Shown: one piece after another, positions 4,296 through 5,715 of the stretch | Position numbering within the stretch: the first letter of the stretch is position 1 | Layout of the letters: each line of letters begins with the position of its first letter | Source: Escherichia coli | GTDB taxonomy: Bacteria > Pseudomonadota > Gammaproteobacteria > Enterobacterales > Enterobacteriaceae | Strand: one strand, 5' to 3' | Length of the DNA: 64,000 nt | Assembly: GCF_003334335.1 (NCBI RefSeq) | Contig: NZ_QOWQ01000015.1 | Made by a program: the position numbers and the translations under genes | The notes under the pieces: generated by a model | The model's database searches: none | The model's input: only the letters and a program-made list of their open reading frames with translations | What the model was told of the DNA's origin: nothing

Positions 4296-4729
4296 TTGCA
4301 TTAATTCAACGCGTAACCCGTGCCAGCGTCACCGTGGAGGGAGAAGTGACGGGCGAAATTGGCGCGGGACTTTTGGTGTTATTGGGTGTCGAAAAGGATG
4401 ACGACGAACAGAAAGCAAACCGTCTGTGCGAGCGTGTGCTCGGCTACCGCATCTTTAGCGATGCCGAAGGCAAGATGAATCTCAACGTGCAACAGGCGGG
4501 CGGCAGTGTGCTGGTGGTTTCCCAGTTTACCCTCGCCGCAGATACCGAACGGGGGATGCGCCCAAGTTTCTCCAAAGGTGCATCACCGGATCGCGCAGAG
4601 GCGTTATATGACTATTTCGTCGAACGCTGCCGTCAGCAAGAGATGAACACGCAAACAGGACGCTTCGCTGCGGATATGCAGGTATCGCTGGTCAATGATG
4701 GCCCCGTGACATTCTGGTTGCAGGTATGA
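4292..4729 (+). CDS. dtd: D-aminoacyl-tRNA deacylase
   Basis: ORF track 4292..4729, 145 aa, [17 protein letters not shown]... with conserved SQFTL and C-terminal GPVT motifs; ATGA overlap with yihY stop. Confidence 0.95.
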
Positions 4730-5715
4730 GCCAGCTTCCAGGGTTGTCACGGGAAACAAGAGAGAGTATCGCTATGTATCACCTTCGGGTTCCACAAACA
4801 GAAGAAGAATTAGAGCGTTACTATCAGTTTCGCTGGGAAATGTTGCGTAAGCCCCTGCATCAACCAAAAGGTTCGGAACGCGACGCGTGGGATGCGATGG
4901 CGCATCACCAGATGGTCGTCGACGAGCAGGGTAATCTGGTGGCGGTAGGCCGACTGTATATTAATGCCGACAATGAAGCGTCCATTCGCTTTATGGCCGT
5001 TCATCCCGACGTGCAGGACAAAGGGTTAGGCACGCTGATGGCGATGACCCTGGAGTCGGTGGCGCGTCAGGAAGGCGTTAAGCGCGTGACCTGTAGCGCC
5101 CGTGAAGACGCGGTGGAGTTTTTCGCCAAGCTGGGGTTTGTTAATCAGGGAGAAATCACCACGCCAACCACCACGCCGATTCGCCATTTTTTGATGATTA
5201 AGCCCGTCGCCACTCTGGATGACATTCTGCATCGCGGCGACTGGTGCGCGCAGCTGCAACAGGCGTGGTACGAACATATCCCGCTTAGTGAAAAAATGGG
5301 CGTGCGCATTCAGCAATATACCGGGCAAAAATTTATCACTACCATGCCAGAAACCGGCAATCAGAATCCGCACCATACGCTGTTTGCCGGGAGTTTATTC
5401 TCACTGGCGACGCTCACCGGTTGGGGACTTATCTGGCTGATGCTGCGTGAACGCCACCTCGGCGGAACGATTATTCTTGCGGATGCGCATATCCGCTACA
5501 GCAAGCCGATTAGCGGTAAACCTCATGCGGTAGCCGACCTCGGTGCCTTAAGCGGCGATCTCGACCGTCTGGCGCGCGGACGAAAAGCACGGGTGCAGAT
5601 GCAGGTCGAAATCTTTGGCGACGAGACGCCGGGTGCAGTGTTTGAAGGCACGTATATCGTTCTGCCCGCGAAGCCATTTGGCCCGTATGAAGAGGGCGGG
5701 AACGAAGAAGAGTAG
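4726..5715 (+). CDS. yiiD: Two-domain protein: N-terminal GNAT acetyltransferase plus C-terminal hotdog/thioesterase-like domain (YiiD/FabY)
   Basis: ORF track 4726..5715, 329 aa; ATGA overlap with dtd stop; domain assignment from recognition of the E. coli protein. Confidence 0.88.

Follow-up and report, generated by a model that had tools for sequence, protein, structure and literature searches.

The closest described system is the MadA protein of Escherichia coli K-12 (also YiiD or FabY; b3888), encoded at the end of the gene series yihX-yihY-dtd-yiiD, and both the gene and its role in bypassing FabH are already known at textbook level. Its hotdog domain dimerizes, binds acyl carrier protein (ACP) and converts malonyl-ACP to acetyl-ACP, as identified by gel analysis and LC-MS/MS, and this decarboxylase activity is lost in mutants of a conserved asparagine loop, with Asn214 as its most important residue (PMC8666670). 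The acetyl-ACP is joined to malonyl-ACP by FabB or FabF to give acetoacetyl-ACP, so that fatty-acid synthesis can begin without FabH, and complementation of ΔfabH has been reported for MadA/YiiD (PMC8666670). Acetyl-ACP, of which YiiD is the only known source, also serves GlmU as an acetyl donor of high affinity (Whaley 2021, PMC8666670). YiiD overexpression rescues growth in the presence of a FabH inhibitor, to which the yiiD knock-out is more sensitized than any other strain (PMC11995724), and MadB homologs behave likewise (PMC12093956). The FabH bypass by YiiD matters for resistance to FabH-targeting antibiotics, as its overexpression abolishes the effect of the inhibitor (PMC11995724).

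Several other proteins bear on the comparison. The standalone MadB decarboxylases, including those of Shewanella oneidensis (1T82), Pseudomonas putida (8AYV) and Xanthomonas, have the same PF09500 fold and the same N-x-N-x-H-x-T-x-F loop but, unlike YiiD, lack a GNAT domain. The YiiD of Salmonella Typhimurium ('LcmM'; Ciemniecki 2026, PMC13353551) is an ortholog with a stated identity of 94%, in which both domains recur and N214 and H216 carry the same numbers; its succinate-lag and cAMP phenotype is not detectable in E. coli (PMC13353551). The FabY of Pseudomonas aeruginosa (PA5174) has in common with YiiD only the name and a start of fatty-acid synthesis without canonical FabH; it is a condensing enzyme (PMC8666670), whereas YiiD has no ketoacyl-synthase domain, and the shared name is a collision.

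The window analyzed here is a 64,000-nucleotide stretch of an E. coli contig. It contains a plus-strand open reading frame (ORF) of 329 codons, from an ATG at 4726 to a TAG at 5713-5715, whose product has the same amino-acid sequence as K-12 b3888; by sequence comparison the two genes differ at a single synonymous nucleotide. The locus is likewise the same, and the only difference from K-12 lies in the start codon annotated in different records (Table 1). We assign a probability of about 0.93 to the joint reading that this ORF is yiiD (fabY, madA) and encodes a two-domain malonyl-ACP decarboxylase, that its translation starts mainly at Met17 and that its GNAT domain has a function of its own. 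The locus was found in all 5,426 of 5,426 complete E. coli genomes, being named fabY in every record listed, and the fusion of GNAT and hotdog domains is carried by about 20-25 clusters at 50% identity. As 270 of 740 PF09500 proteins are such fusions, almost all of them from Gammaproteobacteria (PMC8666670), the description of this architecture as uncommon in an earlier, sequence-only reading was overstated.

As published for the identical K-12 protein, the hotdog dimer binds ACP and decarboxylates malonyl-ACP to acetyl-ACP through the Asn214 loop, after which FabB or FabF joins the acetyl-ACP to malonyl-ACP and so bypasses FabH, and acetyl-ACP also feeds GlmU. The GNAT domain, carried on a flexible Thr/Pro linker, is not needed for decarboxylation and, we propose, would serve a function of its own. 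Translation would begin mainly at Met17 via a conserved purine-rich site, from a transcript that is probably shared with yihX-yihY-dtd.

TABLE 1. Features of the yiiD region, by position in the window.
Feature	Position	Strand	Basis
yihX (HAD-family glucose-1-phosphatase), which opens the same-strand cluster	2830..3429	+	NF006991, 406 bits
yihY (BrkB-family inner-membrane protein)	3423..4295	+	NF002457, 477 bits
dtd (D-aminoacyl-tRNA deacylase), conserved upstream neighbor	4292..4729	+	TIGR00256, 256 bits
Leader of 16 codons in the 329-aa annotation, or an N-terminal extension used optionally	4726..4773	+	K-12-style annotation
AGAGAGAGT, a purine-rich element at leader codons 12-14, putative ribosome-binding site for Met17	4759..4767	+	nucleotide conservation
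yiiD/fabY/madA, 313 codons when read from its best-supported start, Met17 in the 329-aa numbering	4774..5715	+	PGAP, conservation, TetRP
GNAT (Acetyltransf_1) domain, residues 31-138	4816..5139	+	PF00583, E 8.6e-16
Thr/Pro-rich interdomain linker, residues 144-154	5155..5187	+	read from sequence
YiiD_C hotdog domain, residues 174-313; malonyl-ACP decarboxylase and dimerization	5245..5664	+	PF09500, E 3.6e-50
Catalytic loop N212-Q-N214-P-H216-H-T218-L-F220 (MadB N43...F51)	5359..5385	+	sequence, alignment to 1T82
10-bp GC-rich hairpin 6 nt after the yiiD stop, without canonical U-tract	5722..5745	+	RNA fold -26.3 kcal/mol, z -2.58

The hotdog half and malonyl-ACP decarboxylation

The sequence-only reading had seen a GNAT acetyltransferase fused to a hotdog domain and had linked YiiD/FabY to FabH-independent initiation of fatty-acid synthesis. 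Both points stand, since a profile search places PF00583 and PF09500 in one ORF, in agreement with the AlphaFold2 model, and the literature assigns YiiD the same role (PMC8666670, citing Sanyal 2019; PMC11995724). Its remark that the mechanism was not clear is out of date, as malonyl-ACP decarboxylation has been published (PMC8666670).

YiiD scores 164.3 bits against the NCBIfam model TIGR02447 (yiiD_Cterm; cut-off 97.1), and its hotdog domain matches 1T82 both on sequence (E 2.8e-30, 38-39% identity) and, in a Foldseek comparison of the YiiD model, on fold (E 1.6e-11, TM of the target 0.78). The same comparison retrieves 8AYV with a TM of 0.73. The mean pLDDT of the AlphaFold2 model is 77, with most of the hotdog domain at 78-91 and residues 211-215 of the catalytic loop below 50. 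The loop was judged by the corresponding residues of MadB, namely the essential Asn N45 together with N43, H47, T49 and F51, and the equivalent N212, N214, H216, T218 and F220 are all kept in YiiD in a gap-free alignment to 1T82. Among 20 distant homologs, N214 and F220 never vary, and conservation of N212 and H216 is 90% or higher.

Historically, the C-terminal domain was annotated as an acyl-CoA or acyl-ACP thioesterase. The Pfam and NCBIfam descriptions still say 'putative thioesterase', the hotdog fold is common to many thioesterases, and the sequence-only reading had also called the domain thioesterase-like. However, the measured product is acetyl-ACP rather than free acid and holo-ACP, and the activity is lost in the Asn-loop mutants (PMC8666670); in addition, 8AYV was deposited as a malonyl-ACP decarboxylase. 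The Pfam matches of YiiD include no thioesterase family of the 4HBT type, only a weak match to DUF4442 (E 0.03). We regard a thioesterase as exceedingly improbable. A second reading has YiiD replacing FabH directly, as a condensing enzyme or as a GNAT-based acetyl-CoA:ACP transacylase, and draws on the name that it shares with the P. aeruginosa condensing enzyme. It could also appeal to some polyketide loading modules, such as that of CurA, in which GNAT-like domains decarboxylate and transfer acetyl groups. Against it, purified MadA gave neither 3-ketobutyryl-ACP nor acetyl-ACP from acetyl-CoA, and the GNAT domain on its own was inactive as a decarboxylase and failed to complement ΔfabH (PMC8666670). 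A search of the Pfam and NCBIfam results for YiiD found no ketoacyl-synthase (thiolase-fold) domain, and the chance that YiiD substitutes for FabH in this way is close to nil. Both of these readings, thioesterase and direct replacement of FabH, are refuted by the published assays (PMC8666670), and malonyl-ACP decarboxylation is the reading that we retain.

The GNAT half and its neighbor dtd

The GNAT fold of the AlphaFold2 model matches Staphylococcus aureus SACOL1063 (5JPH, TM 0.82; also 5JQ4) and RimI (5ISV, TM 0.75). The CoA-binding loop is common to all three and an 'SE-x-D' segment to YiiD and SACOL1063, but identity to the YiiD GNAT domain is only 15-25% and the substrates are unrelated or unknown, a literature search on the substrate of SACOL1063 having given nothing usable. 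In YiiD the motif A loop reads Q97-D-K-G-L-G102, which fits Q/R-x-x-G-x-G/A; K99, G100, L101 and G102 are invariant in Enterobacterales, and the two glycines, G100 and G102, reach a conservation of at least 90% among distant homologs. Residues R36, G49, E51, D53, H61 and R76 are invariant in homologs of 34-48% identity. The pN/pS ratio is 0.053 for the GNAT domain vs 0.078 for the hotdog domain, and the domain whose function the literature still asks about is thus very strongly selected, no less so than the hotdog half. The tyrosine of the 'FY..GF' motif is absent, E. coli YiiD having F132-F133 where SACOL1063 and most distant two-domain homologs have F-Y. This tyrosine, the general acid, is common but not universal among GNAT proteins and is no strict defining feature. 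Hence, with Phe133 in its place, classical acetyl transfer is not assured, while membership in the GNAT fold is unaffected.

Neither decarboxylation nor ΔfabH complementation requires the GNAT half, which shows no acetyl-CoA:ACP transacylase or malonyl-CoA decarboxylase activity (PMC8666670). This dispensability could mean that the domain is a relic of evolution or serves structure alone and is itself inactive, as could the lack of a GNAT domain in most Mad proteins (MadB; PMC8666670), the Phe in place of the usual catalytic Tyr in E. coli and the fact that no substrate has been found. Such a view is quite unlikely, however, given a pN/pS below that of the catalytic hotdog domain and the retention of R36, E51, D53, H61, R76 and the CoA-binding glycines down to 34% identity. 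Moreover, decarboxylase-impaired variants still complement the lag phenotype of Salmonella ΔyiiD (PMC13353551). From the preserved CoA-binding loop and the strong purifying selection we infer that the GNAT domain has its own function, and it is probably an acyl-transferase or acyl-carrier-sensing module, a prediction made from sequence. A separate function would fit the cAMP phenotype in Salmonella, which is largely independent of decarboxylase activity (PMC13353551).

The two domains are joined by a linker that acts as a flexible tether according to published work backed by SAXS, the 'balls on chains' model (PMC8666670), and the same GNAT-linker-hotdog layout occurs in full-length homologs. 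For the packing of the domains the published SAXS data (PMC8666670) are better evidence than the AlphaFold2 model, which was given without PAE.

Sampled locus by locus, dtd adjoins yiiD in Enterobacterales and in four loci whose homologs are 35-50% identical, and every two-domain yiiD-type locus examined for neighbors has dtd directly or nearly directly upstream. The dtd-yiiD neighborhood is far older than the Enterobacteriaceae, and its age provides a testable lead for the function of the GNAT domain. The few standalone GNAT and hotdog relatives examined have no dtd neighbor, a standalone hotdog locus among them, and in a small sample of four loci no standalone MadA-N-like GNAT was found beside a standalone MadB, the 'Rosetta-stone' arrangement. 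A reading that ties the GNAT half functionally to Dtd, for example through N-acetylation of the D-amino acids that Dtd releases, appears very unlikely; the acetyl donor might then be acetyl-CoA or the acetyl-ACP made by the hotdog partner of the same protein. Yeast Hpa3, a D-amino-acid N-acetyltransferase, would be a parallel. A literature search for a link between Dtd and D-amino-acid acetyltransferases gave nothing usable.

The translation start and the gene cluster

The yiiD start is annotated so as to give 329 residues in NC_000913.3 and 313 residues in PGAP RefSeq genomes, the latter from the Met17 ATG that lies 44 nt downstream of the dtd stop. Sequence conservation begins at Met17, which is itself invariant. 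Yersinia, Photorhabdus and Pragia have no other codon that could serve as start, and in Dickeya there is just a TTG five codons upstream. Distant two-domain homologs start at the Met17 position or within about 12 residues of it and have no conserved extension. In published tetracycline ribosome profiling (TetRP) the signal at +48 (the 'new site') was 30.1/22.0/6.1, whereas the annotated start gave 7.2/0/0 (PMC4909307, Table S2).

The leader itself does not behave as coding sequence. It shows no codon periodicity (entropy 0.49/0.54/0.71), its pN/pS is 0.52 vs 0.053 for the core, and it is predicted to be disordered (AlphaFold2 pLDDT below 50). Within it the AGAGAGAGT element has zero or near-zero entropy across 73 loci, third codon positions included, and Yersinia, Pragia, Photorhabdus and Dickeya have an AAGAGAG-like stretch at a distance of 6-10 nt before the start. 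The RNA of the leader is unstructured (z +0.99). Judged from its conservation and position, AGAGAGAGT is probably the ribosome-binding site for Met17.

Should the 329-residue protein from the ATG at 4726 instead be the main product, by termination-reinitiation coupled to dtd, several features of the best 80 loci listed in a scan of genome contigs (all Enterobacteriaceae) would be explained. An in-frame ATG overlaps the dtd stop as ATGA in 79 of 80 loci; the third base of the last dtd codon, otherwise free, is A in 72 of 73; the spacer classes of 12, 15, 16 and 17 codons all keep frame, their lengths always being multiples of three; and in-frame stops occur in none of the 80 loci, while the two alternative frames contain stops in 50 and 10 of them. 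The K-12 record also annotates this form, and the published numbering (N214, H216) follows it. We nevertheless consider it unlikely as the main product, because the TetRP signal falls mainly at +48 (PMC4909307), the leader lacks coding periodicity and combines a high pN/pS with predicted disorder, the extension is absent outside the Enterobacteriaceae and from all distant homologs (and impossible in Yersinia), and the AGAGAG element immediately before Met17, invariant at the nucleotide level, behaves as a ribosome-binding site would. YiiD translation thus probably begins mainly at Met17, and the start codon of the K-12 reference probably needs to be moved 16 codons downstream. Given the conserved ATGA, the kept frame and a small TetRP signal in one replicate, a minor 329-residue isoform may nonetheless arise by reinitiation after dtd.

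These results bear on the proposal in the sequence-only reading that yiiD is translationally coupled to dtd and yihY. The 4-nt overlap of yihY and dtd (ATGA, 4292-4295) is real; the dtd/yiiD overlap (ATGA, 4726-4729) exists only with the 329-residue start, while TetRP, PGAP and comparison favor Met17. Hence yiiD is probably not tightly coupled to dtd in translation. Further upstream, yihX and yihY overlap by 7 nt (ATGCTAA, 3423-3429), and the annotated yihX start has a strong AGGAGG 7 nt upstream. Consensus scans of positions 1700-6600 gave no promoters or terminators within yihX-yiiD above shuffled expectation which, with the adjacency of the genes on one strand, fits co-transcription, and this gene layout makes it probable that yiiD is co-transcribed with yihX-yihY-dtd. 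Rfam, scanned with the entire window, gave no RNA family within 2500-7500. The hairpin that follows the yiiD stop was not called by the consensus terminator scan, and it is possibly the 3' end of the operon or a stabilizer.

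Architecture and function of YiiD

The window derives from the E. coli chromosome, and yiiD (fabY, madA) is an already known gene whose primary function is known. Its 329-codon ORF on the + strand, from the ATG at 4726 to the TAG at 5713-5715, encodes a protein identical to K-12 b3888 and is the final gene of the same-strand cluster yihX-yihY-dtd-yiiD, over the whole of which there is a single synonymous nucleotide difference from K-12. The 2.4-kb stretch spanning this cluster is present in 5,426 of 5,426 complete E. coli genomes, and all of the records listed carry the annotation "fatty acid biosynthesis protein FabY".

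Features of the yiiD locus and of the rest of the window
Feature	Position	Strand	Basis or description
yihX	2830-3429	+	NCBIfam: glucose-1-phosphatase, unambiguous
yihY	3423-4295	+	NCBIfam: BrkB-family membrane protein, unambiguous
dtd	4292-4729	+	NCBIfam: D-aminoacyl-tRNA deacylase, unambiguous
yiiD	4726 (or 4774)-5715	+	ORF, Pfam, NCBIfam
Hairpin	5722-5745		strong, z -2.6
AT-rich stretch	5716-7100		31-45% GC
Truncated pseudogene	~6075-6191		PGAP
SECIS_3	12459-12517	-	Rfam, 84 bits; selenocysteine insertion element
naRNA4 (three) and ES036 (two)	21596-21758 (+), 30603-30680 (-), 35685-35726 (-), 55079-55120 (+)		Rfam
ClpQY (hslVU) promoter element	49378-49435	-	Rfam; heat-shock
L31 (rpmE) leader	54047-54099	+	Rfam; ribosomal-protein leader

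The fusion of a GNAT domain to a hotdog domain, proposed by the sequence-only reading, is borne out, as Pfam recovers both Acetyltransf_1 (PF00583, residues 31-138, E 8.6e-16) and YiiD_C (PF09500, residues 174-313, E 3.6e-50), and the protein scores 164 bits against TIGR02447, for which the curated cut-off is 97. By sequence, the nearest solved structures are Shewanella 1T82 for the hotdog half (E 2.8e-30) and S. aureus SACOL1063 (5JQ4/5JPH) for the GNAT half; none of the matches is a solved structure spanning both domains. In an AlphaFold2 model built from 19 homologues (mean pLDDT 77, pTM 0.66), the hotdog half superimposes on 1T82 (TM 0.78) and on 8AYV, "malonyl-ACP decarboxylase MadB" (TM 0.73), and the GNAT half on 5JPH (TM 0.82). 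The architecture had been called uncommon, and it is taxonomically restricted yet not rare, with the fusion accounting for 270 of 740 PF09500 sequences, nearly all from Gammaproteobacteria (PMC8666670). Scanning one genome per species with a pattern yielded 447 relatives, and HMMER, run exhaustively against 1.84 billion representatives, gave ~20-25 clusters (50% identity) of full-length two-domain proteins, beside many standalone hotdog and standalone GNAT relatives.

The description of the second domain as thioesterase-like holds for its fold but not for its function. Whaley et al. (2021, PMC8666670) excluded both a condensing-enzyme and an acetyl-CoA:ACP transacylase activity for YiiD, which was renamed MadA; the protein converts malonyl-ACP to acetyl-ACP by decarboxylation (gel assay and LC-MS/MS), an activity residing wholly in the C-terminal hotdog domain, which is also the dimerisation unit, with two ACP bound per dimer. 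Acetyl-ACP is used by FabB/FabF to form acetoacetyl-ACP, bypassing FabH, and also serves GlmU as a high-affinity substrate, and SAXS and thermal melts indicate that the domains fold independently around a flexible Thr/Pro linker (PMC8666670). Mutagenesis of the Shewanella homologue defined a loop of N43, N45 (essential), H47, T49 and F51 (PMC8666670), all of which are matched in the window's YiiD (N212-Q-N214-P-H216-H-T218-L-F220). A comparison with 20 two-domain homologues, which share only 34-48% identity, shows no variation at N214 or F220 and at least 90% conservation at N212 and H216. In chemical genetics with a FabH inhibitor, YiiD overexpression fully rescued growth and the yiiD knock-out was the most sensitised strain (PMC11995724), and studies of Xanthomonas and Pseudomonas MadB agree with the decarboxylase picture (PMC12093956; PMC10869286). 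Given the published assays on the identical protein, the chemical genetics and the MadB work, the mechanism, which the sequence-only reading had considered unclear, is therefore known, and the FabH-independent initiation that it mentioned stands by way of acetyl-ACP; its interpretation was thus largely correct but behind the literature.

Start codon of yiiD and its proposed coupling to dtd

Annotations of the yiiD start are in conflict, as the curated K-12 record (NC_000913.3, b3888) has the 329-aa form overlapping dtd, whereas PGAP places the start at 4774 (Met17, 313 aa), 44 nt past the dtd stop. Residue numbers in the literature (N214, H216) follow the longer form. We take Met17 to be the main start and the ancestral one. 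It is invariant and conservation begins there, with residues 1-16 weakly conserved or missing in homologues and residues 1-14 predicted to be disordered; distant two-domain homologues start at its equivalent or within ~12 residues of it, with no conserved extension. Codon-position entropy (positions 1/2/3) in 73 loci of Enterobacteriaceae is 0.49/0.54/0.71 in the 16-codon leader between the upstream ATG and Met17, 0.11/0.06/0.84 in the next 50 yiiD codons and 0.23/0.12/0.92 at the dtd end, and pN/pS is 0.52 in the leader versus 0.053 in the core. Leader codons 12-14 (AGA GAG AGT) are nearly invariant as nucleotides, and a comparable purine-rich element lies 6-10 nt before the start in Yersinia, Dickeya, Photorhabdus and Pragia, where 67-134 nt separate dtd from yiiD and the loci have no in-frame upstream ATG; in Yersinia a stop codon interrupts the frame five codons before the start. 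Tetracycline ribosome profiling (TetRP) lists the ATG at +48 as "1. new site" for yiiD, with signals of 30.1/22.0/6.1 versus 7.2/0/0 at the annotated start (PMC4909307 Table S2), and no YiiD N-terminal peptide was recovered in that study (PMC4909307).

The upstream ATG nevertheless appears not to be meaningless, judging from its conservation. Among the best 80 of the 447 relatives, which are Enterobacteriaceae loci, it is present in frame in 79, and 72 of 73 loci have A as the third base of the last dtd codon, the position that supplies the first base of this ATG. The spacers to Met17 are of 12, 15, 16 and 17 codons, every length a multiple of three, and in the same 80 loci in-frame stops occur in none, compared with 50 and 10 loci for the other two frames, with composition-matched shuffles remaining open in 56% of cases per sequence. 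In Enterobacteriaceae, reinitiation at the ATGA may yield a minor product.

Translational coupling of yiiD to dtd and yihY had also been claimed, and the overlaps do exist (ATGCTAA at yihX/yihY, ATGA at yihY/dtd and ATGA at 4726-4729 for dtd/yiiD). The dtd/yiiD overlap, however, requires the 4726 start, which is probably not the main one, so with Met17 favoured this part of the claim needs correction. Co-expression of dtd and yiiD is plausible from the layout, given the common strand; consensus scans found no terminator-like or promoter-like site above background across the yihX-yiiD cluster, and a strong hairpin occurs only after yiiD. At the head of the cluster, the mechanical ORF of yihX begins at GTG 2809, and a strong AGGAGG lies 7 nt upstream of the annotated ATG at 2830, so that yihX is drawn too long in the ORF list.

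The GNAT half and the dtd neighbourhood

A Salmonella yiiD deletion delays growth on succinate and halves lag-phase cAMP (PMC13353551), and as decarboxylase-impaired variants complement it fully or in part (PMC13353551), the GNAT domain is implicated in this phenotype; E. coli did not show this effect (PMC13353551). The CoA-binding motif is intact (Q97-D-K-G-L-G102), and R36, G49, E51, D53, H61 and R76 are invariant among homologues as low as 34% identity. Values of pN/pS among 81 Enterobacteriaceae sequences (GNAT 0.053, linker 0.085, hotdog 0.078) show that constraint on the GNAT domain is at least as strong as that on the catalytic hotdog domain. The tyrosine of the "FY..GF" motif is present in SACOL1063 and kept in most distant two-domain homologues, whereas it is Phe in E. 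coli (Phe133, 5122-5124) and in almost all Enterobacterales sampled, which may reflect changed chemistry in the enterobacterial domain.

In all Enterobacterales sampled, dtd is the gene immediately before yiiD. More distant two-domain homologues show yihY-dtd-madA with a gap of 52 nt (50% identity) or dtd-madA with a gap of 95 nt (38%), and in one of 35% identity a single opposite-strand gene separates the two. In a small sample of three standalone GNAT loci and one standalone hotdog locus, there was neither a nearby dtd nor a pairing with the other half. Literature searches for a dtd-yiiD linkage turned up nothing. The order could be gene-order inertia, or it could, speculatively, hint that the role of the GNAT domain relates to Dtd.

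Other elements of the window

Past yiiD (~55% GC), the AT-rich stretch holds the small CopG-type genes yiiE and yiiF and is strain-variable, as 80% or more of 5716-6540 is covered in only 1,999 of 5,426 E. coli genomes and some have an IS1 insertion in the region; with its truncated pseudogene, it resembles an islet that is decaying or was acquired horizontally. The SECIS_3 element presumably lies within fdoG (formate dehydrogenase-O), downstream of fdhE/fdoI/fdoH, and is expected at this locus. The naRNA4 and ES036 matches are probably intergenic REP-type repeat elements, and the ClpQY element and L31 leader are known cis-regulatory RNAs.
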